Shown: positions 5,606 through 28,571 of the stretch, one piece after another
How positions within the stretch are numbered: position 1 is the stretch's first letter
Layout: each line of letters opens with the position of its first letter
Assembly: GCA_048886185.1 (NCBI GenBank)
Contig: JBHLKY010000001.1
Coordinates: 1 to 32,000, forward strand
Direction of reading: 5' to 3'
DNA length: 32,000 nucleotides
From: Candidatus Hermodarchaeota archaeon
Lineage (GTDB): Archaea; Asgardarchaeota; Heimdallarchaeia; Hodarchaeales; Hodarchaeaceae
Made by a program: the position numbers and the translations under genes
The notes under the pieces: generated by a model
What the model was told of the DNA's origin: nothing
Seen by the model: only the letters and a program-made list of their open reading frames with translations
The model's database searches: none

Positions 5606-5749
5606 AATATCAGTCCTTAATCAACTTTAAACACAGATTACTTATTGAATGGTTTTAGGAATTGAGTCATCTTTCAGGAAAATCTAATAGGCATTCATTT
5701 AATAAATCGTAGAAAAATCTACTTAACTATAGTTAATAATGTTTCAAAC

Positions 5750-6433: not shown

Positions 6434-6457
6434 TTTTTTGATTAGTGTGATATTAAA

Positions 6458-7423
6458 ATGGAATACGAAATTTTGGGAAGTATAATTTTTAGTTTTGTAA
6501 CCTCCTTACGGGAGGTTTTAGAAGCAGCTTTAATCATAGGTATTATTGCAAGTTATTTAACAATTATAAATCGTAGAGATTTGTACCGTGATATTGTATA
6601 TGGCGTGAGTGCGGCAATTATCTTCAGTTTTGGAATGGCATGGGTTTTTTTGACCTTTTTTACCGATTTAGCTGAATTCCAAAAATTATTTGAGGGTATT
6701 GCAATGTTTCTGGCTGCAGGCGTTCTCTCATGGATGATTGTATGGATGACACGCCAATCTAAGAATATACGTTCAGACATCGAAGAAAAAGTCAATAAAA
6801 TTATCTCAAATCAAGAGAAAGCAGGTATTACTCTATTAGTTTTCATTTCAGTGGCGAGAGAAGGAGCTGAATTGGTTCTTTTTCTCTATGCGAGTTATAT
6901 AGGTAGTGTTGAAGAAACAGGAATTTTAACAGCACTTTCTGCAATTAGTATTGGATTTCTGTCTGGTTTAGTTTTTGCTTCCATAATGGCGTTCGTTCTT
7001 TTTACTACGACACGAAAATTTGAAATCAAGAAATTTTTTCAGGTAACAAGTGTGATTCTCATTTTTTTCGCGGCTGGATTACTTGCTCATGGAGTTCATG
7101 AGATCTATGAATTTTTAGAAATTTCGGGGTCACCTTTCATCAATAATGTTATTTGGATGGAAGTGTGGAACATTAACAATACCCCATTAGGTGATTTGCT
7201 AACTTTCCTATTTGGGTGGAGTTATGATCCACTTAATCCCTTAAGATTTGAGAAAAGTGCCATAGGTGGCATAGCAGTGGGTTTATTTGGATGGAATGAT
7301 AATCCTGCTTTGCTTGAAGTCATTAGTTATGGATTCTATTTTCTTGTTATTTTTATTCTGATTATGCGAGCTACAAGCTTTCCCGAAAAGAATGAAAGAG
7401 ACATTACTCCTAACACTCCTTAA
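6458..7423 (+). CDS. FTR1/EfeU family high-affinity iron permease
   Basis: Two RExxE motifs (REVLE, REGAE); LLAHGVHE; multiple TM helices. Confidence 0.92.
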   Translation: MEYEILGSIIFSFVTSLREVLEAALIIGIIASYLTIINRRDLYRDIVYGVSAAIIFSFGMAWVFLTFFTDLAEFQKLFEGIAMFLAAGVLSWMIVWMTRQSKNIRSDIEEKVNKIISNQEKAGITLLVFISVAREGAELVLFLYASYIGSVEETGILTALSAISIGFLSGLVFASIMAFVLFTTTRKFEIKKFFQVTSVILIFFAAGLLAHGVHEIYEFLEISGSPFINNVIWMEVWNINNTPLGDLLTFLFGWSYDPLNPLRFEKSAIGGIAVGLFGWNDNPALLEVISYGFYFLVIFILIMRATSFPEKNERDITPNTP

Positions 7424-7432
7424 AGAATGTTA

Positions 7433-8119
7433 TTACTCCCCGATGAGTTCTTCGGTCACAAGAAGAGCGATAGCAAGAAGTATAATTGCATGGATGAAGA
7501 GAAGCAAAATGTTATTGACAACATTCAATGGATCTTCAAAAAGGACAAGGCTGGTTGATGCTTGGGTTGCAAGTATGATTGATGGGAGAATCAATGGAAA
7601 AAATAGGATTGGGATTGCTAAAGTCTTAGATTTCGCATAAATAGTCAAGAAAGAAACAATACATCCTGCAACACAAAGATCTAAGGTTCCTATTGTTAAC
7701 ACCACGCAAAGAAGAAGAAAATCAGCTTGGAAGTCTAATCTTAAAAATACAATAGCTAGAATAACAGTTACTATTTCGATGAAAGCTAGAATAACACCTA
7801 AATAGATAAGTTTAGCGAGGAAAATGGCTTGTGGCTTTATTGAGAGGGAAAGTAGCGAATAGATTGAGTTTTTTCTTATCTCGCGAGAAAATACCGAAGT
7901 TAAACCTAACATTACCGAGAACGTAATGATAAACCATAAACTTGCTACAGAAACAGCCTGTTTAGCTTTTAATGATATATCTATTAGATTAAATAGACTA
8001 GAAAAGATCAGTACAGAGGCAAAGGAGAAAAGACCCATTGAAAAGAGTGTTTCCCTTTTCCTAAACTCTAGCAAAATGTCTTTTTTCGCCAGATGATATG
8101 TAGCACTGATTATTGTCAT
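7433..8119 (-). CDS. ccmB: Heme exporter/cytochrome c maturation protein B
   Basis: KDILLEFR, FSRE, IFLAK, LFFPLILP; 6 TM; follows ccmA. Confidence 0.88.
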   Translation of the reverse strand: MTIISATYHLAKKDILLEFRKRETLFSMGLFSFASVLIFSSLFNLIDISLKAKQAVSVASLWFIITFSVMLGLTSVFSREIRKNSIYSLLSLSIKPQAIFLAKLIYLGVILAFIEIVTVILAIVFLRLDFQADFLLLCVVLTIGTLDLCVAGCIVSFLTIYAKSKTLAIPILFFPLILPSIILATQASTSLVLFEDPLNVVNNILLLFIHAIILLAIALLVTEELIGE

Positions 8120-8135
8120 CCTTCATCCCCTCGTA

Positions 8136-8885
8136 TTAATTCTGCTTCTTAAGGAAGTAATCATATTCTGAAGGTTGCAGAATTTTGTCAATTCGACCTT
8201 TCTCAAGATAATATACTTTACTACAGATGTGTGAAATTGAGTTAAAATCATGAGAACAGATTATAACTGTTATATTAGAATCCCGCTCTGTGATAATACG
8301 TTTGATAAATTGTTTATTCTCCACATCTAAACCACTAAAAGGTTCATCAAGTAATACCAATTTAGGTAATTTAGGTGTTGCAACCCTTAACAGTTCAAGT
8401 TTCTTTGCCATCCCTGTTGAGAGTTCATGGGTTGGTCGATCAATATAAAATTTTAAATTATGCTGCTTAACTATCGTATCGATCATTTTTGAGGGATTTT
8501 CTGTTCTTTTATTCATTCTCAGGTAAAATTCGAGGTTTTCACGACCTGTGAAATCATCATAAAAAAAGGAATGACTCAATAACGTCCCAATATCCTTTTT
8601 ATGGATATGATAGTTTTCTTTAATTTCATTACCAAATAATTCTATTTTTCCAGCTGTTGGTTTAATTAATAGAGAGATGATTTTTAGAAGAGTACTTTTT
8701 CCCGCTCCATTGTTTCCTAGTAATCCTATAGTTTCTCCTTCTTCTATTGTCATGTTTATATTTTTTAATGCATTAATGAAGCCGTATACTTTGGAAACTT
8801 GTGTTAATTTAACAACTGGGGTGTTTTGATGATCTAAACTAGCCATCTTATGCAGCTCTGATGCATTAGACCTTCTAAATAGCAT
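8136..8885 (-). CDS. ccmA: Cytochrome c maturation ABC ATPase
   Basis: Walker A GNNGAGKST, LSTGM signature, LLDEP Walker B, SH switch; ccm operon context. Confidence 0.88.
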   Translation of the reverse strand: MLFRRSNASELHKMASLDHQNTPVVKLTQVSKVYGFINALKNINMTIEEGETIGLLGNNGAGKSTLLKIISLLIKPTAGKIELFGNEIKENYHIHKKDIGTLLSHSFFYDDFTGRENLEFYLRMNKRTENPSKMIDTIVKQHNLKFYIDRPTHELSTGMAKKLELLRVATPKLPKLVLLDEPFSGLDVENKQFIKRIITERDSNITVIICSHDFNSISHICSKVYYLEKGRIDKILQPSEYDYFLKKQN

Positions 8886-8892
8886 ATTACTT

Positions 8893-9042
8893 TTATTTTA
8901 AGATATTCATCTCTTTTTCAAGCTTTTTTAGCTTATTATTTATATAATACAGATATAAGAAGAGTAAAACCCATACTGCTATTGAAATAAAGAGCATTAA
9001 ACTTAATTCAGATCCAAGAAGCTCATCAAAAAAATCTGCCAT
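8893..9042 (-). CDS. ccmD: CcmD-like single-TM protein, 49 aa (not in ORF track)
   Basis: Hand translation MADFFDELLGSELSLMLFISIAVWVLLFLYLYYINNKLKKLEKEMNILK*; GAGGTGA SD; one TM with W/Y, then a charged coiled tail; fills the gap between ccmC and ccmA. Confidence 0.8.
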   Translation of the reverse strand: MADFFDELLGSELSLMLFISIAVWVLLFLYLYYINNKLKKLEKEMNILK

Positions 9043-9070
9043 AATTTTTCACCTCTGATTCAAAAGATTT

Positions 9071-9754
9071 TTACATTTCTTCCATTTTGATTTTTCTTAA
9101 TTGTGCTAATTTTAAATCAATTTTATTAATTCTATATGCCATATACACCAGTACTAATGTTAAAATTCCAATAAATAGAAAATTTAACATTAAATACATT
9201 CCCACTCCTGAGCCAAGTGTCGTTTGTTGAGGAGCTGGATGTAATGCACCGACTACATAGTTAGATAGAGGAACAGAGGGAGAAGTAGCAATTCCAAACA
9301 CTGCGGAAAGCGTGGCTTTCCTCTCATGGTGCCCGTCTTCTAACATTTCTCTGAAAATTAATAATCCAACATAAGCAAACCACATTATTAATGTTGCAGT
9401 CTGCCTAGGTTCCCATTGCCACCAATAACCCCATTCTGGTTTAGACCATATTATTCCGACAATTATTGTTATCGCTCCTACCACAATTCCTGTTTGAGTA
9501 CCTGAAACCAAAAGAAAATCAAATCGTATATCCTTTCTCCACAAATACAAAATACCACTTAGAAGTACAATACCAAAACAGAGATAAGTTGAAAAGGCAA
9601 ATGGAACCATATAAAAAATCGGATGTCCGCTAACAGTGAATCCTTGAAATGGTTTAATCACTATATACACGAAGTAATAGTTAAAAACCATAAAACAAAT
9701 AGCAATAGCGAAAATAATCCAATTGAGGTTATTCCTTACTTTTTCACTTCTCAT
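9071..9754 (-). CDS. ccmC: Cytochrome c maturation protein C
   Basis: WWD domain WSKPEWGYWWQWEPRQT; flanking His (GHP, ALHP). Confidence 0.92.
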   Translation of the reverse strand: MRSEKVRNNLNWIIFAIAICFMVFNYYFVYIVIKPFQGFTVSGHPIFYMVPFAFSTYLCFGIVLLSGILYLWRKDIRFDFLLVSGTQTGIVVGAITIIVGIIWSKPEWGYWWQWEPRQTATLIMWFAYVGLLIFREMLEDGHHERKATLSAVFGIATSPSVPLSNYVVGALHPAPQQTTLGSGVGMYLMLNFLFIGILTLVLVYMAYRINKIDLKLAQLRKIKMEEM

Positions 9755-9784
9755 TTGATAATCACCCTAAGATATTCTGATTTC

Positions 9785-10183
9785 TCAGATCTCACCTTGG
9801 TATTTTGATGGACATTTAGTGCTTATCATAATAGCTTTGAATTTCCATATAATTGTTGTTGAAATGAGTTTTCCTTCAACCAATATGGTCTTACCAGCTT
9901 CAAATCCTGCAGGCTTCTCAACATTAGTTGCGTTAATGTAAATAATCAATGATATGTTATTCACATCATCAGGATCAGTTATAAAGAATCCAGTGTTGTT
10001 AATTTCCTGAACATTACCTATCAGCTGAATCTTGCGATTTATATAGGAATCGGGATTCTTTTGAACCATTAATTCTTTCACAGTGAAAATTGGTACGGAA
10101 GAACTTGTTAATAGATATAAAAATGCGCCTGCGCATATTATGATGATAATTGCAGTAAGTATGACGTTTTTGGATTTAGCCAC
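9785..10183 (-). CDS. ccmE: Heme chaperone CcmE, Cys variant (CxxxY)
   Basis: N-terminal TM, OB-fold-like IQLIGNV...VEGK, terminal TKCPSKY. Confidence 0.92.
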   Translation of the reverse strand: MAKSKNVILTAIIIIICAGAFLYLLTSSSVPIFTVKELMVQKNPDSYINRKIQLIGNVQEINNTGFFITDPDDVNNISLIIYINATNVEKPAGFEAGKTILVEGKLISTTIIWKFKAIMISTKCPSKYQGEI

Positions 10184-12518
10184 TTTTCATACCACCATCA
10201 CTCGTATTTTCGTTCTCTGATAGATCAATTTTAGTATTGTTTTTATCCATTACTTTTTTATCTGGAGAATAACTCTTTTTTAAGAGGATAAATCTACCTA
10301 TTGTTAAGGGTATCATCGCAAAATGAAGGAGAAGACATCCCATCCAGAGAATGTTAATATATGGAATGATTTTTATTTGAAGAGCTGCGGCTTGAAAACT
10401 TCCTAAAGCGTTTTCATAAACACCAATAGTAACAATGTAAATATCGGAAAACAAATCACTTATTATCGTCACTTCATGACCCTGACGATTAACCTTATCA
10501 AAATGAAGGCTACTGATTCCATATCCAATGATCCGTGTTTTTGTCGATAACATGAACTGCGTATTAAATTCGAGACGATGTAGGCCCGAATCAGGAAATT
10601 TTTTTTCCAATTTTATTATAGTAATTGTTAGCGAAGTACCTGGAATTTCTTGGTCACCTATAATAACATCTATATCCTTTGTAATCGTCATGTTTGTACT
10701 CATTAATGCACCAATTAGAATTACTAAGAAAGATAAATGTAGCATTGTTTGGGAAGTTTTACGGAGGAGGTTTTTATTTTCCTTTAATGTAATGTTTATA
10801 AATTCTGCAATCAATCCAATAACTCCTAGAAACAGGAGGGGTAGAACAAAATTTGCTTTGTCGCTGTTGGTCCAGAAGTTATCAAGAAAAGTAAAAATCG
10901 GGTTTTCTTCACCTAACATTTCATACAGTACAGTCCAGAAGATATTAAAAATGGCCATTAATGGATTTTCAGTAAAATCTATCGGGTTTTCAATCAAATT
11001 AGGGTTACGATAGAAAAAACCACTCAATGAAAATGTGACTCCAGCTATTAATCCACTTATCAACAGAGTGAATTTCTTTTTAACGCTTAATCTTGGGTAA
11101 AACGTACAGAAAAACTGCGCAAATAGCAAAACAGCTCCGAAAATTAGAAGAGAATTATTATAGAATAGTTGATCAGTAGGGAAATTAGGAGGGATTGTAA
11201 TATCAAGAACAGGAATAGTTATACCCTGACTAAAACCTTTGGGGTGAAATGTGATTATATATCCTATCACATCATATATTGGAGGAAAAATAAGTCCAAA
11301 AATCATCCAGTAAGTACCTGCAAGGAGAACAATGAAAGATATTTTTAATGCAGTTCTTTGGGATTTTGATGCCTGAAAATCATTTTTATTAAGTGAAAGG
11401 GGGATTTTTGTAATTTCCTTGCTCTTTATTCCATGAAAATGAGGAAGAAGAAAAGTCACTATTATAGCAATAAAAAGAAACAATATCCTTTCTTCCGGGA
11501 TAAATCTTAAAATTATACTCATGAGAAAACTATTTTCAGGAATAAAAAGGATTAAAAATCTTTCTAAGGCGCCATGAGGTACAAATGCGTGAACACTTGA
11601 AATTACACCACTTCGAGTTAGATATGTTACAAATAAGGCACCAATATAGCTCATACTCACAATGTAATTGCTTAAGTATTCTCTTTTGCCAAAGAAAGAT
11701 TTTCCATGAAAATAAAGGGTCATAAAGAGCCAAGGTATCAAGGAACCTGTCTCAACGGGATCCCATGCCCAAAAACCACCCCAACCGAGAGTTATGTAAG
11801 CCCAATAACCACCAATGATAATACCTGTGCTAAGAGCGAGCCAAGCTAATGAAACTGTAAATTCAAAGAAATTATCTAACTTTTCTTTACCTTCAAAGTC
11901 GGGTACTTTACCATCTTCAAGAATAGAAATTCTAGTGATAGCAATGACCATGGGAAGAAAACATAGAGCGTAACTAATGAAAATGATTGGCGGATGGATA
12001 ACATTCCAAATATTCATTAATAATGGATTTAGTCCAAGACCATCTGAAGGTGGAGTTGCATTTATTTTAAAGGGTTCACTTAATAGCGTTAAAAACACAA
12101 TAATTGCTACTTGTGAAGCTGCTAGAACAAAAGAGCGCCAAAAGATGGATTCATGCGCATAATTCCGAAAGAGTGACCTAAAGATTAGATAGAGGATAGC
12201 TATTAGAACTGCCCAAAAGAAATAGCTTCCAGGTTGGCTACTCCAAATGACTGATAATCTCAAGAAAAAATCCATGTCATTGGAGGTATATTCGCTCACA
12301 TAAAAAAAGGTGTAATCAAGGGTAAGAATAGAGTAACTGAAATATAGGAAAGAGATGATAATAGCAATCATCCCAGTAGAAAGACTCATCTCTGAATAAA
12401 GTTCCCATTTTTCAATATATTTTCCCGCTATCAATAGAAAAGCATCGAATAAAAAAGCTATTAATGCGATGACTAGTAATAATACACCTATGTCTATTCC
12501 AAATCCAATGTCAATCAT
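10176..12518 (-). CDS. ccmF: Cytochrome c heme lyase CcmF (single polypeptide)
   Basis: NVIHPP, WAYITLGWGGFWAWDPVETGSLIPWL, TRSG...SVHAF, LHL, PYINILWMG; stop overlaps the ccmE start. Confidence 0.95.
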   Translation of the reverse strand: MIDIGFGIDIGVLLLVIALIAFLFDAFLLIAGKYIEKWELYSEMSLSTGMIAIIISFLYFSYSILTLDYTFFYVSEYTSNDMDFFLRLSVIWSSQPGSYFFWAVLIAILYLIFRSLFRNYAHESIFWRSFVLAASQVAIIVFLTLLSEPFKINATPPSDGLGLNPLLMNIWNVIHPPIIFISYALCFLPMVIAITRISILEDGKVPDFEGKEKLDNFFEFTVSLAWLALSTGIIIGGYWAYITLGWGGFWAWDPVETGSLIPWLFMTLYFHGKSFFGKREYLSNYIVSMSYIGALFVTYLTRSGVISSVHAFVPHGALERFLILFIPENSFLMSIILRFIPEERILFLFIAIIVTFLLPHFHGIKSKEITKIPLSLNKNDFQASKSQRTALKISFIVLLAGTYWMIFGLIFPPIYDVIGYIITFHPKGFSQGITIPVLDITIPPNFPTDQLFYNNSLLIFGAVLLFAQFFCTFYPRLSVKKKFTLLISGLIAGVTFSLSGFFYRNPNLIENPIDFTENPLMAIFNIFWTVLYEMLGEENPIFTFLDNFWTNSDKANFVLPLLFLGVIGLIAEFINITLKENKNLLRKTSQTMLHLSFLVILIGALMSTNMTITKDIDVIIGDQEIPGTSLTITIIKLEKKFPDSGLHRLEFNTQFMLSTKTRIIGYGISSLHFDKVNRQGHEVTIISDLFSDIYIVTIGVYENALGSFQAAALQIKIIPYINILWMGCLLLHFAMIPLTIGRFILLKKSYSPDKKVMDKNNTKIDLSENENTSDGGMKSG

Positions 12519-12537: not shown

Positions 12538-14769
12538 TTAAACCCGTTTGGTTCCTCTTTTAGTCAGTTTTCTACCCCGATTCTTGTCTTTTATCCGTGA
12601 TCTAATTTTCAATGTCTTGCGGGCACTCTTTTTCTTATATTCCACATAAGTGTATAGTCCTGCAGGAACAAAAATGCCTATAACGACCATTACTCCGATA
12701 ATTGATGATAGGGGTAGTTGTGGTGATGCTGGTTGTCCTAGGATGAAAAAAAAGTCGGTGTGACCAAAACTAGTCCTTTGGTTAAAATCCGTTGATTCGA
12801 AATAATAAGCATATGTACCCGGTTCAGGGAGCCCGTCAGGAAAAGTTATTTTCCAAATATGTGTATCAATTCGTTCAAAAAGTTGTGATTTTTCGGGCTG
12901 TCCTTCACGGTGATAGCGTAAACGGACATATTTTACCTCTCCTTGGGATGGGACATCGTGAGCACTTACAATAATTGAAAATTCTTCATGAACTTGTATC
13001 TCTATTCCAGGAATAAATCCAATTTCCTGAACTTCAGGAGGCCATTTATCAATCTGCCAGAGGAAAGAGTATTCACCTCGCACAGTTTGAATGTTTAAGG
13101 TGTTGGTAATAATGATATTGAAATCGACTGTTGTACCATTACTATTTGGGGAAATATTACTTAATGTAGTATTGAACATATTCCCAATGAAATGAGGGAT
13201 CATCTCTTTTAAAATATAATCGCCATTATTTATTGAATAGTTAAGAAAAACGTTTGAAATACCATTAGAATCAAACGCAGCTATTAAGATAGTTACTTTG
13301 TCTTGAGGACGGGGGACAGAAGGTGACCAAAGGACATTAAGTGCACCTGGTTTGCTATACATCCATAAATTTGCTAGGGCATAGATAGCTAGTGATTGAG
13401 TGACGGCAAATTTGTTCTTCCAAGAAGGATCATCACTTTGAGTCCCATCCGCGTTTGTTAATTGATAATATCCTCCATTAACTTGATCGTAGAGCTTAGT
13501 ATTGAGAACTTCGACTGTATCAAGTATAAAATTATAAAAAATATTATTATCTGTAAGTTTATACGCTTCATCAAGAGCCCGAATACCATAAAATTGCCTT
13601 TCAGTAAATTTTGTTGTGTCATCTAAATCGGAATCAATGTAAGAATTAGTTGCAATAAATCCCCCGTAAGTATTATCCCAGAAGTGGAGCAATACTGAAT
13701 AAAGTACCTGAAAAAAATCATCAAAATAATTCGGATTCTCTGTGACATTATATAGATTGGCTAGAAATTCTAGAACAAGGGAATTAATGAATAGATCAGT
13801 CGTTTCAGAGTCAGGGTAAACTAATTTACGAGTACTATCTACTCCTGTATAGAAAAGGTAACTGACATTATTTCGACACGTTGTATTAATGATATCATAA
13901 ACTTGAAGAGCTTTTGTTAAATATATTACATTCGAGTCTACTCGATAAAGATCAAGTAAAGCGTTTCCCATTAAAGCGTTATGATCCACTCGGAGGGATC
14001 GTGGTTCATATGGATCTAGGGGATTAGGATTTTCGAGTAAAGGACTTCCAGAGTGAGAGGTCATATAAATGTAATAGTCATTCGTTTCATCCCAAGTCCA
14101 TTTATCTATTAAATTAAAAGTCTCAATTGCCATATTTAAATAAGTAGAACTACCAGTTGCTTTGTAAAGAGCTATTAAGGCTTGAATGGCTTTCGCTTGA
14201 ATTCCTGGCCTTTTATAACGATCTGATGTACTAGTAAAAAATCCACCAAAATCTGGATCCCATAGGTTTGTTAACAATCCATTAATTGTTTTTTCAGCAA
14301 TGTTTAGAGCAAAATCTCTTTCTGTCTGGCTAATTACGGCCTCGGCAAGCTTGATTAAAGCTAAAATCGCTTGAGCATTATCATATGTTCGTTTTTCAGT
14401 ATTAATAGCAATTGTCTCCCATTGTTCATTTGTTGAGAAATAAAACCCGTTAGAATCATTATCATAGAGATTCTTGACAAGTAAGTTCGCAATTTCAATC
14501 GAGTAAAAAAGAAAATTAGGAAAATAAGCTTCAGAATCTGTATCTTGAGTAAATTCCTCTAATTTAAGATCGATAGAATTCTCCTTAATAGGTTCACCAT
14601 TGAGATTCTGAAAAAATTTCTGATTTGTAGACTCATTATCACTTGAAAGAATGTTTAAGGTAGAAAAAGGCAGTATGCTTGATAGAACTGTAATAAGCAA
14701 TAATACTGAGAGAAATGAATATGTTAACCATTTTTTTACTTTTGGACGAATGTTCAAAGTTCTATTCAT
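12538..14769 (-). CDS. Membrane-anchored extracellular (alpha/alpha)6-barrel protein (AGE/GH76/YyaL-like) with C-terminal Ig-like domains
   Basis: Signal/TM at N-terminus; EKRTYDNAQ and repeated LWD/LYD..GG(F/Y) motifs; beta-rich C-terminal region, TM and basic tail. Confidence 0.7.
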   Translation of the reverse strand: MNRTLNIRPKVKKWLTYSFLSVLLLITVLSSILPFSTLNILSSDNESTNQKFFQNLNGEPIKENSIDLKLEEFTQDTDSEAYFPNFLFYSIEIANLLVKNLYDNDSNGFYFSTNEQWETIAINTEKRTYDNAQAILALIKLAEAVISQTERDFALNIAEKTINGLLTNLWDPDFGGFFTSTSDRYKRPGIQAKAIQALIALYKATGSSTYLNMAIETFNLIDKWTWDETNDYYIYMTSHSGSPLLENPNPLDPYEPRSLRVDHNALMGNALLDLYRVDSNVIYLTKALQVYDIINTTCRNNVSYLFYTGVDSTRKLVYPDSETTDLFINSLVLEFLANLYNVTENPNYFDDFFQVLYSVLLHFWDNTYGGFIATNSYIDSDLDDTTKFTERQFYGIRALDEAYKLTDNNIFYNFILDTVEVLNTKLYDQVNGGYYQLTNADGTQSDDPSWKNKFAVTQSLAIYALANLWMYSKPGALNVLWSPSVPRPQDKVTILIAAFDSNGISNVFLNYSINNGDYILKEMIPHFIGNMFNTTLSNISPNSNGTTVDFNIIITNTLNIQTVRGEYSFLWQIDKWPPEVQEIGFIPGIEIQVHEEFSIIVSAHDVPSQGEVKYVRLRYHREGQPEKSQLFERIDTHIWKITFPDGLPEPGTYAYYFESTDFNQRTSFGHTDFFFILGQPASPQLPLSSIIGVMVVIGIFVPAGLYTYVEYKKKSARKTLKIRSRIKDKNRGRKLTKRGTKRV

Positions 14770-14963
14770 AAATTATTCCATCTTTTTGATTATCTAAGGG
14801 CAATTATTTGGTGAAGAGGCACAAAAATCTTGAGTTTATTTATTTAATGCAGTTATTTTGGGTACAGGGGGGATATTAATGGAGATTTTTTCAAGAAACA
14901 CTAATTACGATTGATTAAATCAACACACAATTTGAACCAACACGACCTCAACTCCCGACAATA

Positions 14964-15000
14964 TAAAAAAAACAAGAGAACAGCAGTCATTTGCTGTTCT
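14964..15000 (-). terminator. Hairpin plus T-tract after the multiheme cytochrome gene
   Basis: AGAACAGCA-GTCATT-TGCTGTTCT stem at 14977-15000, followed by a T run on the minus strand. Confidence 0.7.
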
Positions 15001-15031
15001 TGCTTGATGTCTTGGATTAACTACTAACTAC

Positions 15032-16678
15032 TTAGGATCGTCTTTTTCTGATGAAATAAGAGGAAACACCTAAAATACCTAATACAGCTAATAATCCAAT
15101 TGCAGGAGCGGTTTCTGTGGTTGTTATTGTTTCGATAACTGTTTTCTCCACTGTTTTCTCAACAGTGTGGTCAACAGTGTGGTCTACGGTGTGGTCTACG
15201 GTGTGGTCTACGGTGACGTCTACTGTGACTGTTGGGTTGATCGCACTAGCAATAGCAGCATTTGCTTCAACGATGGCTTCATCTAGTTTGACTAATGCCA
15301 AGGATAGCTGTTGTTCAGCAGTAGGGGACAATGGGCTGTGGAAAGTACCTTCGTTTGGGACTAAGGCTTCTGCTTCCTCAATCAATGCTTTTGCGTTTGC
15401 GAGATTGTTGGTATCAACACCAATTGTACTTTTGGCTTCATCATATTTGGCTGTGGCTTCTGCTAATTTGGTATCGTACAATGCTTTCGCATCAGTCAAA
15501 TTACCGAAGTTTGCCATATATGTTTGCATGGTTGCCCAGACTGTAGCGTTGTCGTTTCCATGGCATAAACCACACACTTCTCCTGGGTCACCTCCAGAGA
15601 ATCTCCAATTGTGATTGAGGGTAGAAAATGATCCAGGTGTTTCGACAGTCCCGTTAGGGAAATATTTGGTAGGTGTATATGTGTAACCATGGCAATCGGT
15701 ACAAGCTAACATTGTGTGGTTACTTGGGTCTGTGAAGTATGCTGTGCTAGTGTTAAGGCTGATATCGTGGCAAATTCCACAAAGTTCGTTAACTGTTGCA
15801 GCTCGTAATTGACTTCCACCTGGTCCAAATTCCTGGCCAGTATACGGATTAGTATATGGACTCATTGCATGTGATTCGTCACCAGCGTTAACAGAAGCAT
15901 CGTGAGGATCGTGGCATGTGACGCATGTGATAGTGTACCAATCACTGGAATTCAGCTCTGCGACATTCATGTAAGTACTCTGTCCAATATAGTGCTCCAG
16001 ATTAGTCAGTGAATTTATATCACCGCTAGCAAGCAAACCACTAAGAGAGTTATAGTGTTTACTTTGGATGTAGCCCATCCATTGCATTCCACCAGGCGTG
16101 TGACAGCTTCGACATGTCATATAACTGAGGCTTTTTACTCCTGGTTCTGGATGACATGCTGCACAAGAAACACCAATATCCCAGATGTTGCTAGTCATAT
16201 TTTCATAAGCTGGGTTTGTTGGATCTCCAGTAACGTTATACCACCTTGTAGTCATGCAACATTGTTGCCCTGAAGCATTAAATAGCTCACTATAGTTCCA
16301 ATAATTTATAGGGTTGGCAAGGGTATTTGGGGTTCGCCAATAATGTGTTGAATTGTAGGACACTTTGCTACCATTTTTTGCATTATCAAGTGGATCATAT
16401 TCTCCAACTATTTGAGCATGCCATGTTTCGTTCCAACTAGCAATTATATCGTCATGACAACCAGAGCCTGAGCAATCTTCAGGATGCCAAGGGTCTCCAA
16501 TAGCAGCGTGCCAAGAATCGTCAATTGCTTCAAATCTATATTTTGGATCTAAGATTGTTACACCTAGACCTGCAGCAGCAGCTGTTCCGAGGAAGACGAT
16601 GGCAAACCAATAGAATAAGACAACCCTGCGGCCACTCCAATTGCTTTGACGAACTAGTATTTCGTCTTGTTCATTCAT
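15032..16678 (-). CDS. Surface-anchored multiheme c-type cytochrome (c554-like N-terminus, NrfA/HAO/OcwA-like helical C-terminus)
   Basis: Six CxxCH, one CX4CH, one CCM; signal peptide; helical bundle ending GTFHSP; Thr/Val stalk, TM and RKRRS tail; about 12 N-x-S/T sequons. Confidence 0.92.
   Translation of the reverse strand: MNEQDEILVRQSNWSGRRVVLFYWFAIVFLGTAAAAGLGVTILDPKYRFEAIDDSWHAAIGDPWHPEDCSGSGCHDDIIASWNETWHAQIVGEYDPLDNAKNGSKVSYNSTHYWRTPNTLANPINYWNYSELFNASGQQCCMTTRWYNVTGDPTNPAYENMTSNIWDIGVSCAACHPEPGVKSLSYMTCRSCHTPGGMQWMGYIQSKHYNSLSGLLASGDINSLTNLEHYIGQSTYMNVAELNSSDWYTITCVTCHDPHDASVNAGDESHAMSPYTNPYTGQEFGPGGSQLRAATVNELCGICHDISLNTSTAYFTDPSNHTMLACTDCHGYTYTPTKYFPNGTVETPGSFSTLNHNWRFSGGDPGEVCGLCHGNDNATVWATMQTYMANFGNLTDAKALYDTKLAEATAKYDEAKSTIGVDTNNLANAKALIEEAEALVPNEGTFHSPLSPTAEQQLSLALVKLDEAIVEANAAIASAINPTVTVDVTVDHTVDHTVDHTVDHTVEKTVEKTVIETITTTETAPAIGLLAVLGILGVSSYFIRKRRS
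15138..15233 (-). repeat. In-frame 12-bp tandem repeat, about 8 imperfect units, encoding TVTV-DVTV-(DHTV)4-(EKTV)2
   Basis: Plus-strand units ACTGTTTTCTC(C/A) x2, AC(A/G)GTGTGGTC(A/T) x4, ACGGTGACGTCT, ACTGTGACTGTT. Confidence 0.95.
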
Positions 16679-17304: not shown

Positions 17305-18645
17305 TTATCTATTGCGATGTTGTCGTTTAATCAGGGTGATGATGAGTACCCAGCTAATGAGTCCAATGAGAATAATTTCCATCTCAAATCCTGGGGCTCC
17401 ACCGAAATCTACGCTTGAAGGTTTATCAAGGACATTATCTGTTTCAAGTACCACACGAATATACATCTGATGGGCAATCTCATCTGCATCTTGGATTTCG
17501 AATTCACATAAGTAGTAGCTGTCTATCGATGTGGTACTATCCCATGTATATTCGTAGGTGATCCACTCTTCAATGTTTCCACTGCTACTCAAAGATACAG
17601 ATAATTCTTTTCGTGCTCCATTACTGTCAGGTTCATCTGTGCTTGGATCATAATCGTCTAATGCATAAACTGTGAAAGTAACTGAAGATATCCCGTTATC
17701 ATCTTTTACAGCCACCATAAAGTAAATATCATCTGATTCTGCTTTATAATCTGAGGGTTCCACTTCAGTAAGGTTCTCAGGAAGATCAGAATAACTGAGG
17801 CTCCATTCAGGAGGGTCTTTCTTCTCTACAACTGGTTTTTCTTCTCCTTCTAAAACGAAAAAGTCAATTTTCTCTCTGATTATATGTTGATCATCATCTA
17901 TATCTGTTGCGGTCACATTAAGCCAATGGGTGCCAATAAATAACTTGGAAACATTGTATAAGTAGTAATAATAACCTGATGCATCGTCATAGGTCATGAG
18001 TTGGCTTGCACGACGATCGATTTGCGCTTTCACTTCGAGAAGCCCCAGGTCATCTGTAACGCTAACTTGGAATAAATATAAGCCTTCCAAGGTCTCATTA
18101 CTAGTACTGGGAGTAATAAAATCAATTGTTGGGGGATTAGTAACAGCTCCGATTGCGGTAAATCCAAATACCGCTGAATTCCAATTTCCTGATCTATCAC
18201 CTGCATAAACATATAATAGGTATTTTCCCTCCGTTGTTGGTAGATCCACCTTGTAAATGAAATCCTCGTCTGACTCTTCTAATGTGGTATTACTACTATC
18301 GGTACCCCAATGGTAACGGACGTCAGTTGCTTTGTTATCATCAAAGGGATTATTATCTATTATGCTGATACGAATTGTGGTGCCTCCTGGAGTAAAGGAA
18401 TTATTAGCAGGTGAGGCGAGTTGTATTGAGGGAGGAGTGGTGTCCGTATGACCACAACACGCATCTTGTTGAATATCCTTCACTTTCCCTTGTGATTCTT
18501 CTGTTATAATAAGATCATCATAAATATCTCTATTTCCACCATTCGAAGAATCTGCAGCTATTCCAATGATAAATAATCCTCCGATATAGGCAGAAATGGT
18601 AATTATGGTAATTAATAGCACTGAACGAGTCAATTTTTGGTTCAA
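17305..18645 (-). CDS. Surface protein with three Ig-like domains and a PGF-CTERM-type archaeosortase signal
   Basis: Signal peptide; domains open with DTTPP, TNPPT, KDPPE; ends GAPGFE + TM + KRQHRNR. Confidence 0.8.
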   Translation of the reverse strand: MNQKLTRSVLLITIITISAYIGGLFIIGIAADSSNGGNRDIYDDLIITEESQGKVKDIQQDACCGHTDTTPPSIQLASPANNSFTPGGTTIRISIIDNNPFDDNKATDVRYHWGTDSSNTTLEESDEDFIYKVDLPTTEGKYLLYVYAGDRSGNWNSAVFGFTAIGAVTNPPTIDFITPSTSNETLEGLYLFQVSVTDDLGLLEVKAQIDRRASQLMTYDDASGYYYYLYNVSKLFIGTHWLNVTATDIDDDQHIIREKIDFFVLEGEEKPVVEKKDPPEWSLSYSDLPENLTEVEPSDYKAESDDIYFMVAVKDDNGISSVTFTVYALDDYDPSTDEPDSNGARKELSVSLSSSGNIEEWITYEYTWDSTTSIDSYYLCEFEIQDADEIAHQMYIRVVLETDNVLDKPSSVDFGGAPGFEMEIILIGLISWVLIITLIKRQHRNR

Positions 18646-23888: not shown

Positions 23889-24569
23889 TTGGGAATACAA
23901 GAAGAAAGTGGTCAATATTTATCTACTAGAGACAAAATTCTTCAATTCTTATTGCTGAATCGCGCATCCAACAATGCTAATACAATAAAAGAGATTGCAG
24001 ATGAGTTAGATATTAGCATAAACGCAACCAGACAATATCTAATTGTGTTGGAAAAAGAAGGATTTGTAACCAAAACTCAGAAGAAGGGGGAAAGTGGGCG
24101 TCCAGCGATGGAATATACCATCACTGAAGATGCTTTGAGTGTTTTTCCTAAAAATTATGCTGATTTCTCTGTAAAGTTGATCAATGAAATTAAACAGCGT
24201 ATTGGGGTTACAGAGACTGACAACATCCTAAGAGAAGTTGGAAAGCGGATCGCTGATGAAGTACGAGAGGAAGTTGAGGCAGAAATGAGTCCAGATAAAG
24301 ATTTAGATCCTCTACGAAACAAACTGGAAGCAATATCCAGAGTTTATATGAAGTATGGTAAATATCCGGAACTCATTGAGGACGATGATTCATATGCCCT
24401 AAAGAACTTAAACTGTTTAATCTATGATATTGCAAAAGCAGATCCATTAGTTTGTACTGTTGATGAAACTATTGTTACCGAGCTTGTAGGAGAAAAAGCA
24501 ATAAAAGAAAAGTGTTTGAGACAAGGCGATGAGTGTTGTCTCTATAGAATAAAGAAAAAGAAACCTTAG
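23889..24569 (+). CDS. SufR-like HTH regulator with Fe-S-type Cys motif, paralog 1
   Basis: HTH, GRPAMEY, FPKNY, NC-X12-C-x2-DE...C...GDECC; TTG start. Confidence 0.85.
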   Translation: MGIQEESGQYLSTRDKILQFLLLNRASNNANTIKEIADELDISINATRQYLIVLEKEGFVTKTQKKGESGRPAMEYTITEDALSVFPKNYADFSVKLINEIKQRIGVTETDNILREVGKRIADEVREEVEAEMSPDKDLDPLRNKLEAISRVYMKYGKYPELIEDDDSYALKNLNCLIYDIAKADPLVCTVDETIVTELVGEKAIKEKCLRQGDECCLYRIKKKKP

Positions 24570-24886
24570 TTTTTTGTTATTTCTTATGGCGTGAAATTTC
24601 CGAGCTTCAGTTATTTAAAGTTTTTTTGTCTTATTCTCTTTTTTAAATGAATTTTATCTGTTTTTAGTGTAAATTCTTCTTCTTTACTTACTCAATTGAG
24701 CTAAAGTGAGAAAAATTTTTCATCTTTCTTTAAGAAAAAAATGTAAAAAATGTAAAAAGATATATTTATTAATTAAATTGAATTAATTATGATACAGATA
24801 AAATCTTTCACAAAATCAACCCTACAATTTGAAATTCGATTTTATCTGAAGATGGCGCTTTGTGTGCTCTGTATGTGGATGTAAAG

Positions 24887-25849
24887 ATGAAAACCATTAG
24901 AAGGAAAATTAAAATATTTCTCTTTGTAACATTTTTTAGTTTAAGTAGTTTAACAGTTCTGAATGCACTAGGAAAAGTCTCTGCTGATCAGGTAGGCTTT
25001 ATAGCACCGAAAATTACCTTTCAAATCGATCTGAATGATGGACAAATTGCATCTTTCTGGTCCAAAATCAATTCGTATCAAGACATCACCGAATTTGGAG
25101 GAAGTGGTTTTGTGAAATTCGCGAATAATGGAACTCACCTGTTTGCTCTGCTAGTAAGCTCAAGTGATAATGTATGGATTTCAGTTGAATTTGAGCCAGA
25201 TTCCTCTTTGTGTATGAAGAATTTAAATGATGGTTGGTCTTTTTACATTAATAAGGATGAACAGACAGTTTTAGCTAAAGATGTTAAGTTCAGGGGTACT
25301 GTCATTCCAACAGATGATGCGAAAAATGATCTATCTATTGAAAGTATATTTTCAGAGGGTTTGGTCTATATTGAGACAATTCGATCTTTTGATACTTCAG
25401 ACTTAAATGGATATGATATTACTTTTCATAACGCTAGCACTAATTTTCTTAAGTTTGCGTCTGATAGGAATCATTTTGGTAATCATGAAATTTACTATCT
25501 CTATGTTTATATTCCTGCTGATCAACCTAGTAATGAAACAAGTGGTAGTGAAACAATAGAACCCACTGATCCCTATAATACCGAAACAACTGAAACAAGT
25601 GAGGAAATTATCGTCATTCCCACCGATATTCCTGATATTCCAATTCCAGAGGGAGTTGACCTAAATCAGGTGAAGTTTCTATTACTAGGTATCACCCCAT
25701 TTGGCATCTTTGGCTTTGTAAGTATTCATTTGATCCGTCGAGTTTTCTACAGTCCTATAAGTCACGATCACGGTAGGATAGTTTCAAGTTCGTGGAAAGC
25801 TCCTACATTTATCGAAAGATTCAAGGACACCTTTCTTTCTAAAAAATAG
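24887..25849 (+). CDS. Extracellular DOMON-like heme b-binding protein with C-terminal TM anchor
   Basis: Signal peptide; DLNDG..W, CMKNLNDGW (candidate Met ligand), ETIRSFDTSD..YDI, NHFGNH (candidate His ligand); Pro/Thr/Glu linker, TM. Confidence 0.7.
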   Translation: MKTIRRKIKIFLFVTFFSLSSLTVLNALGKVSADQVGFIAPKITFQIDLNDGQIASFWSKINSYQDITEFGGSGFVKFANNGTHLFALLVSSSDNVWISVEFEPDSSLCMKNLNDGWSFYINKDEQTVLAKDVKFRGTVIPTDDAKNDLSIESIFSEGLVYIETIRSFDTSDLNGYDITFHNASTNFLKFASDRNHFGNHEIYYLYVYIPADQPSNETSGSETIEPTDPYNTETTETSEEIIVIPTDIPDIPIPEGVDLNQVKFLLLGITPFGIFGFVSIHLIRRVFYSPISHDHGRIVSSSWKAPTFIERFKDTFLSKK

Positions 25850-25883
25850 GAGATTACACTCTTTTTTTCTTTTAAATAAATCG

Positions 25884-26609
25884 TTGGTAGCAAAAATGAC
25901 AACAGCATACATAAAGGATAATAAAAAAATAGAATCAGCGGATATCAGTGAGGACATTACCGTTGTAAGATATAATAATCTTCAGAGGATTCATCATTGG
26001 ATTCATGTTTTTATCATGATCTTCTTCTTCTTTACTGGATTCGAGTTATTTATTAAAGTGTATTTCGTTGGAGATTATTTCCTAACACGATCTCTTCATT
26101 TCATTTTAGGGATTTTCACTGGGTTTTGGGATATTATCTTTTTCGGTGCAATCCTAATTGGATATGGAAAAATCAATGAAATCATTCCTTATCCTAGAGA
26201 TTTCCTTGATATTGTCATAATTTTCCTTTGTGCAATAAAAATTCTTCCCGATGAGAAGTATCCTGAGTATGATTTTTACGTTAGAGAGAAACAGAAATAT
26301 GTTATGAAATATCACCCCCTTCAAAAGCTTCTAACAGTAAGTAATATTCTTATGATTTTTCTGATGGGAGTTACAGGTATTGTTCTTGCAGAGGAACTCG
26401 TTCCTGGATCTACGGGAATATTAAGTATTATAGGATCATTGGCATTTCCTTTTCAAATGTTTAAAATCGATCTTCGGTTCATCCACTTTGGTATCTATCT
26501 CTACTTTCTCTTTACTACATTAATTCACTTTTATTTTGCACTAATCCCCCAAAATCGACACCGTTTAAGGGGTATGGTGACTGGTAAAGAGAAAATTCCA
26601 ATTAATTAA
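25884..26609 (+). CDS. Di-heme cytochrome b, FdnI/HyaC type
   Basis: RYNNLQRIHHWIH, RSLHF, YHPLQK, and two His 14 residues apart in the last TM (FIHF...LIHF); ATG alternative at 25896. Confidence 0.88.
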   Translation: MVAKMTTAYIKDNKKIESADISEDITVVRYNNLQRIHHWIHVFIMIFFFFTGFELFIKVYFVGDYFLTRSLHFILGIFTGFWDIIFFGAILIGYGKINEIIPYPRDFLDIVIIFLCAIKILPDEKYPEYDFYVREKQKYVMKYHPLQKLLTVSNILMIFLMGVTGIVLAEELVPGSTGILSIIGSLAFPFQMFKIDLRFIHFGIYLYFLFTTLIHFYFALIPQNRHRLRGMVTGKEKIPIN

Positions 26610-26899: not shown

Positions 26900-27577
26900 G
26901 TGCATTCAATCCACAAAAATGGGTTTTTTTCAAAACAGAACTCTAACTTCATGTTTTCTTTCTTCTTTGCTCTTACTTTTCTGTGGATGGTACTGTCTTT
27001 CTCAATATTCAGTTTAATCTATAACTTGCTAATTTTCCCTTTTACCATAATTCATGAATTAAGTCATTGTTTCGCGCTTGGTTGTTTTTTTCCAGGTAAA
27101 GAAGCTCAAATTGAATTCCATTTGTTTGATAATGGAATTACTTATGCTAATGTAAAATTCGAGTCCCTTCCTCTCTGTTTAGGATCTGTGATGTCTCTTA
27201 TTATTGGTCCGTTATCTGTTTTGACACTATGCATACTAGGGATCATTATGCTAAAACAGTATCCTTCATCAAATCTTAGCAAGACTACAAGTAATTTCTT
27301 AAAGTTTGTATTATTGTGTGATTTTCCAAATCTATTTCCAATACATCCTCCTATGATTAACGCAGTTACTGATGGATATGCAGCAAGTGTGTATCTATTC
27401 CAAATGGGTGTTGTCCCTTTCATTTCAACAGAGTTATCTATAATACTCTATATGATTGCTGCTATAATTTCTTTCACTTCGTTCTTCTACCTTGGAACCT
27501 CAGTCTATTTTCTTTTACAGCACTTCAAAGTATTGGTCCTGAAAGATGAACGAAACTTTCATCCCCAATTAGCTTAA
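26900..27577 (+). CDS. M50-family (site-2-like) intramembrane zinc metalloprotease
   Basis: IIHELSH (HExxH) in a TM; NLFPIHPPMINAVTDG (NxxP...DG). Confidence 0.75.
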   Translation: MHSIHKNGFFSKQNSNFMFSFFFALTFLWMVLSFSIFSLIYNLLIFPFTIIHELSHCFALGCFFPGKEAQIEFHLFDNGITYANVKFESLPLCLGSVMSLIIGPLSVLTLCILGIIMLKQYPSSNLSKTTSNFLKFVLLCDFPNLFPIHPPMINAVTDGYAASVYLFQMGVVPFISTELSIILYMIAAIISFTSFFYLGTSVYFLLQHFKVLVLKDERNFHPQLA

Positions 27578-27588
27578 ACTGAAAATTC

Positions 27589-28287
27589 TCATACTTTAGC
27601 TTTCTTTAGTTTATTTATTCTATAAACACAAAGCATGTCTCCCTCGGATAAACACTGGACTTTATCAGCTTTTTTCCCCACTAGTTCAGTAACTAGAGTT
27701 TCATCAACAATACATGCTAAAGGATGATTACGGACAATATCATAAATTAAACAATTGCGATTTGTTATTGTAAATGAATCTTTAGTTTCTTCAATTTCAG
27801 GAAAACTGCCATAATCTTGGAAAACTTCTGCAACTGCATTAATTCTGTCTTTCAAATTATCAGAATTCGTACCACTTTCTTTTAAGGTTGAGTTAAGTTT
27901 TCTTTTCATCTCTTCAGCTTTTTCTTTACCCATTTCCGTTAGAAGATGTCGAGCTTCTTCCTCTCCAAAATTCTTTAAGATACGGTTTAGCAGTCGAATA
28001 GAAAAATCTGCATAAGATTTAGGAAATTTGGTTAGAGCAGCTTGGGCTAAGAAATAAGTCATCGCTGGACGACCTGTTTTCCCCTTCTTTTTCTTACGAA
28101 TTACGAGTTTATCTTTCTCTAGTTCAATCAGATATTGGCGTATCGCATTAGGAGATAAATCAAAAGTCTCCGCCATCTCTTTTATTGAACATCCCTGAGA
28201 TTCATCTTGAATGTTACTATTTACAAGTAAATAGCTTAGGATTTCTAATCGTGTTGATGAAAGATGTTCACTAGCTACCTGAGGCAT
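27589..28287 (-). CDS. SufR-like HTH regulator, paralog 2
   Basis: Collinear with 23889..24569 (GRPAMTY, FPKSYADFS, NC-X12-C-x2-DE, C...GDMLC); start moved to ATG 28287 (MPQV). Confidence 0.85.
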   Translation of the reverse strand: MPQVASEHLSSTRLEILSYLLVNSNIQDESQGCSIKEMAETFDLSPNAIRQYLIELEKDKLVIRKKKKGKTGRPAMTYFLAQAALTKFPKSYADFSIRLLNRILKNFGEEEARHLLTEMGKEKAEEMKRKLNSTLKESGTNSDNLKDRINAVAEVFQDYGSFPEIEETKDSFTITNRNCLIYDIVRNHPLACIVDETLVTELVGKKADKVQCLSEGDMLCVYRINKLKKAKV

Positions 28288-28571
28288 ATTTGCATCGCCT
28301 AATAGAATATTATATCGAACAAATATAATCAAAGAAGTATGTATTTTTTAACTTTTTTAAATGTTTTTACATTAAATTATAATAAACTTTTTAAGAAGAG
28401 ATTTCATTCTAAAAAATGACTAGAATAATGTAGAATGTAATTTATTATTATCAATGTGGATTTTTAAGCTTTAAAACTAATACGATTGTTTGAAAGGTCA
28501 AGCATTAAATACATACTTTTTCTGATACCATTGATCCTCACCTATTTTATGCAAAGAAGTATAAACTGAAT

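Follow-up and report, generated by a model that had tools for sequence, protein, structure and literature searches.

A DOMON-fold surface protein and an FdnI/HyaC-type cytochrome b very probably form a split transmembrane electron conduit in Heimdall-group archaea

Results

The gene pair and its arrangement

The window, which is the whole 32,000-nucleotide stretch of DNA analyzed here (positions 1 to 32,000 of the forward strand of contig JBHLKY010000001.1, assembly GCA_048886185.1, Candidatus Hermodarchaeota archaeon), carries two neighbouring genes, A and B, encoding an exported DOMON-fold protein and a cytochrome b of the FdnI/HyaC type, and this pair is the subject of the present work. A sequence-only reading of the window had described them as adjacent co-directional genes and proposed a split transmembrane conduit from quinol to an external haem, which would feed either a multihaem cytochrome or iron uptake through FTR1. 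The GC content of the window was about 33%, the source genome was 4.84 Mb in size and 96% complete, and the homologues of the window proteins came from metagenome-assembled genomes (MAGs) labelled Heimdallarchaeota or Hodarchaeales. The features of the pair were as follows.

24887-25849, + strand: gene A (ATG start, 320 aa), exported DOMON-fold protein, probably haem b-binding (from the structure model, fold matches and alignment)
25211-25216, + strand: Cys109-Met110 of A, with Met110 as candidate axial haem ligand (family conservation)
25472-25474, + strand: His196 of A, candidate second axial haem ligand (family conservation)
25661-25750, + strand: C-terminal membrane anchor helix of A, residues 259-288 (model, conservation and complex prediction)
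25896-26609, + strand: gene B (ATG start, 237 aa; alternative TTG start at 25884), four-helix di-haem cytochrome b (PF01292, invariant His and model)
25995, 26097, 26484 and 26526, + strand: ligand residues His34, His68, His197 and His211 of B (conservation)

The gap between the two genes was 46 bp when B was read from its ATG start and 34 bp from its TTG start, as the sequence-only reading had it. In a tblastn comparison, B lay directly downstream of A and on the same strand in 17 of the 17 other species genomes with room for it, and 17 of the 19 over-cut-off PF01292 genes of the class Heimdallarchaeia adjoined A. The adjacency is thus not a matter of chance, because all 17 genomes keep it. 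Conserved pairing or gene fusions had been named beforehand as signs of a joint function; the pairing was borne out, whereas the fused form was not found among the 82 A-family clusters recovered by an exhaustive profile search (E up to 1e-3, 1.84 billion representatives). In the longer members of this small A-family, Ig-like domains or another DOMON were present. Longer, fused relatives of B were likewise searched for and not found, which is weak evidence.

Gene A encodes a DOMON-fold surface protein

The structure of A was modelled by AlphaFold2 with 26 homologues as input and reached a moderate predicted local distance difference test score (pLDDT) of 70. The model comprised a signal-like helix (residues 1-33), a DOMON beta-sandwich (about residues 36-210), a disordered stalk of glycosylation type rich in Thr, Ser, Glu and Pro (211-258), the anchor helix, and an Arg-Arg pair followed by a conserved, basic cytoplasmic tail (289-320). 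Three N-x-S/T sequons were present in the outer part, and K263, F277, H281, R284 and R285 of the anchor helix were kept in the alignment. All of the 42 close homologues of A came from Heimdall-group MAGs.

The top ranks of a Foldseek search with the A model were NxrC (E 3e-6), EbdC (2e-5), CBM9 modules, the cellobiose dehydrogenase (CDH) cytochrome and the DOMON of dopamine beta-hydroxylase, with a Foldseek probability of 1.00 for NxrC, EbdC, the CDH cytochrome and the dopamine beta-hydroxylase DOMON. A VIA-align scan of 48,161 chains, which is independent of Foldseek and in which unrelated rows stayed below Z 6, returned EbdC (Z 15.5, 160 residues aligned, root mean square deviation (rmsd) 3.1), NxrC (Z 13.9), the CDH cytochrome (Z 12.1) and the DOMON of dopamine beta-hydroxylase (Z 11.8), and the best three of these structural matches are haem b proteins. 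The beta-sandwich of the A model was assigned the DOMON fold because these matches were far above the unrelated rows.

At the sequence level, weak PF03351 matches were found in 8 of the 26 relatives of A (best E 7e-4). One distant A-family member gave a PF03351 match of E 1.4e-5 within the region covered by the A1 profile, and in a distant member a canonical DOMON (53.7 bits) stood in tandem with an A-type domain. The profile of A found nothing among the PDB sequences at E up to 10, and A matched no EB_dh model (PF09459). Comparison of the A1 profile with an EB_dh protein by hhalign gave E 7e-4 over 41 columns, which is too weak for ligand equivalence, as is the E 0.25 to the canonical DOMON encoded in the cytochrome oxidase (cox) operon of the source contig. 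A forms a sequence family of its own, and its fold and ligand pattern place it in the DOMON superfamily.

The candidate Met/His ligands that the sequence-only reading had seen in an exported DOMON-like protein could be located and followed through the family. Met110 was conserved in 111 of 112 A-family members and a His was present at position 196 in 110 of 112, while the neighbouring Cys109, the one Cys of A, was conserved in 65 of 112 only. Met110, the single Met of mature A, lies in the loop after the WxxxEF strand, where the canonical cox-operon DOMON also has its Met in the E 0.25 alignment; this loop of A was modelled with low confidence, as expected of a ligand loop built without haem. 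His196 sits in a loop between the last two strands. Met110 and His196 were the only near-universal polar residues of the pocket loops, and A probably binds haem b through this pair of residues.

Gene B encodes a four-His di-haem cytochrome b

The description of B as a four-His di-haem cytochrome b held up. B scored 42.9 bits against PF01292 (gathering cut-off 30.1) over profile positions 1-179, and His34/37 in helix 1, His68 in helix 2 and His197 and His211 in helix 4 were invariant in 23 sequences. The two His of helix 4 are 14 residues apart, as in FdnI, and in the profile alignment His34 and His68 of B corresponded to His18 and His57 of FdnI. The B model had a pLDDT of 84 and four membrane helices; Foldseek placed FdnI first (E 7e-5) and HyaC next, and VIA-align gave Z 13.9 to FdnI (178 residues aligned, rmsd 3.5), Z 11.5 to HyaC and Z 11.2 to CybB. 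Lys and Arg were abundant in the N-terminus, the 90-140 loop and the C-terminus and scarce in the outer loops, so these three parts were placed in the cytoplasm. With this topology, His34/His211 would be the inner and His68/His197 the outer haem pair.

An invariant KYHPxQK motif precedes helix 3 of B and aligns with KYNAGQK of FdnI, a stretch which we take to line the menaquinone/2-heptyl-4-hydroxyquinoline N-oxide (HQNO) site. This correspondence hints weakly at a retained quinone site in B.

PF01292 proteins classically anchor a hydrogenase or a formate dehydrogenase. B is a PF01292 member, but neither FdnI nor HyaC proper: it reached 30.4 against a cut-off of 121.5 for TIGR02125 and 16.5 against 115.85 for TIGR01583, the genes for periplasmic catalytic or iron-sulphur (Fe-S) partners were not in the window, and no group-1 hydrogenase or Fdn-type enzyme was in the genome.

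Predicted complex of A and B

The complex was predicted from the alignments of A and B with three haems riding along. Its interface score from predicted aligned errors (ipSAE) was 0.65, 0.69 and 0.65, while the best control reached 0.00; the partners had a pLDDT of at least 74 and the runs shared at least 89% of contacts. Of 80 solved complexes, 58 reached the ipSAE mark used, as did 2 of 110 mismatched pairs; these counts are only rough here because own alignments and riding haems were used. The multimer part of the check named in advance, a multimer prediction with haem distances, was thereby passed.

In the best run, the lowest predicted errors (1.1-1.4 Å) were those between the anchor helix of A (259-289) and helix 4 of B (192-217), on which it packed, the tail of A (289-315) contacted the conserved cytoplasmic loop 99-132 of B, and residues 108, 111, 137-138 and 197 of A contacted residues 61 and 167-169 in the outer loops of B. 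As 108 and 111 flank Met110 and 197 flanks His196, the Met/His loops face B in the model. The predicted position of A on B is the place of FdnH on FdnI and of HyaA on HyaC.

Other possible partners in the genome

In agreement with the sequence-only reading, no hydrogenase, formate dehydrogenase or Fe-S subunit was encoded in the window. The search was extended to the genome, in which B was the single PF01292 gene. The NiFe hydrogenase matches were Vhu/Mvh-like, sulfhydrogenase-like and NuoD/FpoD-like, and the single molybdopterin match was NuoG/HoxU-like. No other partner of B is likely, because none of these hydrogenase or molybdopterin matches uses a cytochrome b anchor. A cytochrome b that serves a dehydrogenase encoded elsewhere had been named in advance as grounds for refutation, and the genome thus gave no sign of it. 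The quinone users of the genome were cytochrome bd subunit II and the complex-I-like NuoD/FpoD-like subunit, and EB_dh (PF09459) was not found in the source genome.

These results suggested that A and B very probably form one complex, in which a predicted DOMON haem lies over a di-haem cytochrome b. The split conduit that had been proposed is well supported because of the strict pairing, the conserved Met and His, the complex prediction and the lack of a cytochrome-b-dependent hydrogenase or formate dehydrogenase elsewhere in the genome.

Distribution and co-occurrence

Among 400 Asgard genomes, A orthologues were confined to two families of Heimdallarchaeia, and 0 of the 317 genomes of other classes had one. 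Within the 83 genomes of the class that were used for the co-occurrence tables, A was detected in 20, with a true orthologue in 19. PF01578, which marks cytochrome c maturation (Ccm), was present in 17 of the 19 pair-bearing genomes, and the two exceptions were 84% and 68% complete. Ccm occurred without the pair in six genomes and 58 genomes had neither, so that just two of the 60 genomes without PF01578 carried the pair. COX1 and the pair were found together in 11 genomes; the pair occurred without COX1 in eight, including genomes that were 96% and 99% complete, and COX1 without the pair in 13, which include two whole families. The pair tracks the Ccm genes and surface c-type cytochromes, not Cox, and the counts are suggestive in this respect.

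At a locus of the second family (L064, G037:C399, positions 2278-8521), the pair was directly followed by genes for an EB_dh-domain protein (320 aa) that has one CxxCH, for a CcmF-like protein of 657 aa and for two secreted proteins resembling LanC or GH76. This gene order mirrors the multihaem cytochrome, (alpha/alpha)6 surface protein and ccmF of the window. EB_dh/CxxCH proteins also accompanied a CcmF-like gene in another pair-bearing genome. In the two families with readable neighbourhoods, surface c-type cytochromes and maturation genes are found close to the pair or elsewhere in its genome, which is suggestive.

Genes around the pair

The other features of the window that bear on the pair were as follows.

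6458-7423: FTR1 gene, 17.5 kb upstream of the pair and beyond the ccm genes
7433-12518, - strand: ccmB, A, C, E and F, cytochrome c maturation (Pfam matches)
15032-16678, - strand: membrane-anchored surface multihaem cytochrome c (Pfam Cytochrome_C7 and MtrC/MtrF domains)
23889-24569, + strand: SufR-like regulator 1, winged helix and Cys-rich MetOD1 (Pfam MetOD1, E 8e-11)
24795-24805 and 24838-24848: perfect 11-nt inverted repeat, CAGATAAAATC, 32-nt spacer, GATTTTATCTG, candidate operator or leader hairpin
26900-27577, + strand: third cassette gene, small polytopic membrane protein with an HExxH (HELSH) motif
27589-28332, - strand: SufR-like regulator 2, convergent, at the cassette end (Pfam MetOD1, E 1.9e-9)

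A comparison of 14 related loci, in which FTR1 was looked for within 10 kb, revealed a genus cassette with the order SufR-like regulator, A, B and HExxH protein, often closed by a convergent second SufR-like gene. Orthologues of regulator 1, whose score for NCBIfam SufR (73.7 bits) was under the cut-off, lay upstream of A in 10 of the 14 loci, the HExxH gene came after B in 11, and regulator 2 was held at the same place in the nearer relatives. The bracketing of the cassette by paralogous SufR-like regulators suggests control by Fe-S or redox status. The predicted structure of the HExxH protein gave template modelling (TM) scores of 0.55-0.60 to Peptidase_M50 and DUF3267 clusters, and an orthologue matched Peptidase_M50B weakly (E 0.006); it resembles the M50/M50B/DUF3267 intramembrane metalloproteases, and processing of A or regulation are possible roles. 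The inverted repeat lay about 40 bp upstream of the start of A, and its words were not found in the related loci, so conservation was not seen. A scan for sigma-70 promoters, which carries no meaning for archaeal DNA, did not exceed its shuffles.

In most relatives the cassette adjoined ccmCAB, or else the multihaem cytochrome, the surface (alpha/alpha)6 protein and ccmF. The multihaem cytochrome was syntenic with the cassette in 7 of 14 related loci and present in 14 of the 15 pair-bearing genomes of the genus. FTR1 was found in none of the 14 neighbourhoods. Of the two outlets that had been put forward, the multihaem cytochrome was favoured by this synteny and by Ccm in 17 of 19 pair-bearing genomes, whereas FTR1, at its distance of 17.5 kb and with 0 of 14 neighbourhoods, was not supported. 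A peroxiredoxin, an NADH-dependent flavoprotein reductase and a haemerythrin-PAS protein were also encoded near the cassette in the window; the peroxiredoxin remained near in three relatives and the flavoprotein was not conserved nearby.

Other DOMON modules in relatives and on the contig

Further DOMON genes were observed in related genomes. In one (L065, G042:C47, positions 12980-16299), a second DOMON-linked membrane module consisted of a canonical DOMON (43 bits), followed by a Tat-signal 4Fe-4S dicluster protein and an NrfD-type membrane subunit. Its neighbours were a CcmF-like gene and genes for a LanC-like surface protein and two EB_dh/CxxCH proteins. Across the class, quinone modules of several kinds seem to have been joined with DOMON haem proteins. 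One exception to the adjoining of A by PF01292 genes was a cytochrome b paralogue 45% identical to B (L066, G048:C340, positions 1471-4892), which had no adjoining A-type gene; 1 kb away, the opposite strand encoded a surface protein of 568 aa in which a canonical DOMON at the N-terminus is combined with three repeats and an anchor at the C-terminus. A second-family genome (L050, G036:C336, positions 2253-8060) encoded, immediately upstream of its pair, a surface protein of 1935 aa that has a canonical DOMON at its N-terminus (54.9 bits) together with eight or more fibronectin type III repeats. At another locus (L057, G042:C50, positions 17307-18212), the strand opposite to the pair carried a distant A paralogue (profile E 1.2e-11) some 1.2 kb away, and some genomes therefore have two A-type DOMON proteins beside one cytochrome b. 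On the source contig itself, an operon of cytochrome bd subunit II, DOMON, a CoxIII fusion, CoxII, CoxI and CoxIV was located 12.9-18.9 kb past the window end. Its DOMON is canonical (PF03351, 94.5 bits) and too distant to be detected by A.

Discussion

A three-haem wire across the membrane

Taken as a whole, it is reasonably probable that A and B constitute a two-subunit wire of three b haems across the cytoplasmic membrane, most likely linking a quinone site on the cytoplasmic side to surface c-type cytochromes. In such a wire, the inner haem would be held by His34 and His211 near the cytoplasmic face of B and the outer haem by His68 and His197 near the outer face. Exported A would be tethered by its C-terminal helix, packing on helix 4 of B, while its conserved tail would clamp the conserved cytoplasmic loop of B. 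The DOMON sandwich would rest on the outer loops of B with its Met110/His196 haem b above the outer haem, in the place taken by the Fe-S subunits FdnH in formate dehydrogenase-N and HyaA in hydrogenase-1. Electrons would then pass through the inner, outer and DOMON haems between the quinone site of B and the surface cytochromes. We infer quinone as the inner partner, with quinol as donor, and the surface multihaem cytochrome as the most likely redox partner outside; the latter would serve in the genus of the window, and in the second family this part would fall to monohaem c proteins of EB_dh type. The flow may run either way. If the quinone site is on the inner side, outward flow would be a means of electron disposal at the cost of membrane potential, and inward flow would conserve energy as in Fdn-N.

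Several observations weigh against this interpretation. A itself had no Pfam DOMON match even at E 10 and no NCBIfam match, and the hhalign comparison of the A1 profile with the canonical cox-operon DOMON was weak. The complex and the placement of its haems are predicted, and the pass of the complex prediction may partly reflect the familiarity of the prediction model with anchor-helix packing of the FdnH/FdnI type. The argument for a quinone site draws on a weak FdnI alignment (E 0.08) together with the HQNO site of FdnI, and a search of the genome for MqnA (PF02621) gave no match. The multihaem cytochrome had homologues in one genus only, three genomes had this cytochrome without the pair and one had the pair without it. 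The genomes compared are related and not independent, so that the co-occurrence counts overstate the support and are suggestive. Finally, the SufR-like regulators and the nearby peroxiredoxin and flavoprotein genes would also fit a role in redox stress.

Alternative explanations

The last of these points leads to a pair that scavenges superoxide or oxidants at the outer face, like E. coli CybB, or supplies reductant for surface repair, like MsrQ, with SufR-like Fe-S sensors in control. The two flanking regulators, the peroxiredoxin kept near in three relatives together with the flavoprotein reductase and haemerythrin-PAS genes, and the likeness of B to CybB (Z 11.2) speak for such a role. CybB, however, acts alone while B is always accompanied by A, in its genomic context the pair is tied most strongly to ccm genes and surface cytochromes, the flavoprotein gene does not stay near the cassette, and an MsrP-like or other repair enzyme is not part of it; we therefore consider this role unlikely. 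The pair could also be an input to the oxidase and a substitute for complex III, with B oxidising quinol and the A haem feeding the cox-operon DOMON some 19 kb away. The source contig does carry the DOMON-CoxIII-CoxII-CoxI-CoxIV operon and a cytochrome bd subunit, and two preprints report DOMON proteins in Hodarchaeales cox operons and state that the electron route to Cox is not known. The occurrence of the pair without COX1 in 8 of 19 genomes, some of them nearly complete, the reverse situation in 13 genomes, including two whole families, and the lack of adjacency between the pair and cox in all 14 neighbourhoods (0/14) make an oxidase input unlikely, if slightly less so than the other alternatives. 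For a surface ferric reductase that delivers Fe(II) to the FTR1 permease, one can point to the FTR1 gene in the window, to SufR-like regulators, which suggest a link to iron or Fe-S status, and to the reduction of ferric chelates by eukaryotic DOMON-b561 proteins. FTR1 lies 17.5 kb off past the ccm genes, though, and its absence within 10 kb from 14 of 14 related neighbourhoods renders this explanation very unlikely.

Two further possibilities separate A from B. A might be a sugar-binding or structural surface domain of DOMON/CBM9 kind, with B working alone or with another partner, as CBM9 modules and a Bacteroides carbohydrate-binding protein matched A at Z 11.5-11.9 and A had no significant Pfam haem-DOMON match. 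The best three structural matches are haem b proteins, however, the near-universal polar pocket residues are exactly one Met and one His, the ligand pair of DOMON cytochromes, and the partner B is a haem protein which the Met/His loops of A face in the complex model, so a non-cytochrome A appears decidedly improbable. That B anchors a hydrogenase or formate dehydrogenase encoded elsewhere, with the adjacency of A being incidental, would agree with the classical role of PF01292 proteins and with the NiFe hydrogenase genes in the genome. It is contradicted by the types of these enzymes (cytoplasmic or complex-I-like hydrogenases and a NuoG/HoxU-like molybdopterin match), by A-B adjacency in 17 of 17 genomes, and by the scores of B far under the cut-offs for NCBIfam hydrogenase and formate dehydrogenase cytochromes b, and can hardly be upheld. 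The tight synteny of the pair with ccm genes would also suit a supply of reductant for cytochrome c maturation, which we rate below the link to surface cytochromes.

Possible significance

The link of the pair to Ccm and c-type cytochromes rather than to Cox or FTR1, its restriction across the phylum and the control-tested interface are new here, and the literature search found no paper describing the A-B pair; the modules that are extended, an FdnI/HyaC-type anchor and a DOMON protein of haem type, are known ones. We put forward, tentatively, that Asgard archaea of Hodarchaeales type have in this wire an oxidoreductase particular to their lineage, working from quinone to surface or from surface to quinone, and that it is the point in the membrane where electrons enter or leave an extracellular electron-transfer chain whose parts are b-haem DOMON modules and surface c-type cytochromes; with inward flow, it would act as an energy-conserving redox loop in the style of FdnI, supplied by external donors or partner cells. 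If true, this would be a respiratory or syntrophic mode, not recognised before, in the archaea proposed as the nearest relatives of eukaryotes. Electron transfer in Heimdall-group archaea is a matter of debate: two preprints (including Appler et al., bioRxiv 10.1101/2024.07.04.601786) differ on whether these archaea respire, and according to one the electron route to the oxidase is not known. For electron exchange with the outside, the pair would supply a definite membrane component that can be tested, and such a component would bear on syntrophy or on metal or oxidant reduction.

Comparison with known systems

Hodarchaeales cox operons carry DOMON proteins with a proposed part in electron transfer (Appler et al., bioRxiv 10.1101/2024.07.04.601786). 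The cox-operon DOMON shares lineage and superfamily with A, but it is canonical PF03351 and paired with oxidase subunits, not with a cytochrome b.

In bacteria, the CbcL/MtoC/MtrH family joins a dehydrogenase-free, FdnI/HydC-like di-haem b domain to extracytoplasmic haems and has been proposed to link the quinone pool with extracellular electron transfer, its genes often adjoining c-type cytochrome genes; the outer haems of CbcL are 3-23 covalent c haems in a fused polypeptide, and the family was found in Bacteria only in that survey (PMC6295460). The B domain resembles the b domain of this family, and the role of A-B would be comparable to that proposed for CbcL/MtoC. In A-B, by contrast, the outer haem is predicted to be one non-covalent b haem in a DOMON on a separate subunit. 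Membership of the pair in the CbcL/MtoC/MtrH family was rejected, as A and B have a single Cys each and no CxxCH is possible.

Among archaea, a possible likeness to CbsA of Sulfolobus (cytochrome b558/566, CbsA/CbsB) may be mentioned. CbsA is a glycosylated protein of the DOMON/EB_dh kind which is exported, carries one haem b and is held by a C-terminal helix, and its gene is beside that of a polytopic membrane partner. This partner, CbsB, is not known to be a PF01292 di-haem cytochrome. The EB_dh model has matches in Sulfolobus acidocaldarius, and A does not match it.

The eukaryotic DOMON-b561 proteins had been cited by the sequence-only reading as a parallel, which holds as an analogy but not for the membrane part. 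In eukaryotic CYBDOM proteins, a di-haem membrane cytochrome receives electrons from cytoplasmic ascorbate and passes them to a Met/His-ligated DOMON haem at the outer face. The functional logic of A-B would be alike, whereas the membrane parts are not homologous, with four helices of FdnI type against six of b561 type, and the split pair stands against a fused protein with a PF03188 core. Membership in CYBDOM was rejected, since B is PF01292 and its Foldseek match to the plant b561 (4o6y) had E 1.4 and probability 0.09.

FdnH/FdnI (PDB 1kqf, 1kqg) and HyaA/HyaC (4gd3, 6g94) are the closer structural precedent for the pair. B has the same four-helix di-haem fold as FdnI and HyaC (Z 13.9 and 11.5) and is FdnI-like in its His pattern, with the helix-4 His pair 14 residues apart, although it lies far under the NCBIfam equivalog cut-offs of the Fdn-N and hydrogenase cytochromes b. 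FdnH and HyaA are each anchored by a C-terminal helix, and A is likewise predicted to be an outside partner tethered on the cytochrome b by a single C-terminal helix. Unlike FdnH and HyaA, A is a DOMON-fold protein with a predicted haem b and not an Fe-S subunit, and unlike Fdn-N and hydrogenase-1 the A-B pair has no catalytic subunit and would be a bare wire. In this way, the FdnI/HyaC anchor appears to have been re-used with a DOMON protein, of predicted haem content, in place of the Fe-S subunit, a prokaryotic solution that would converge on the eukaryotic b561-DOMON design.

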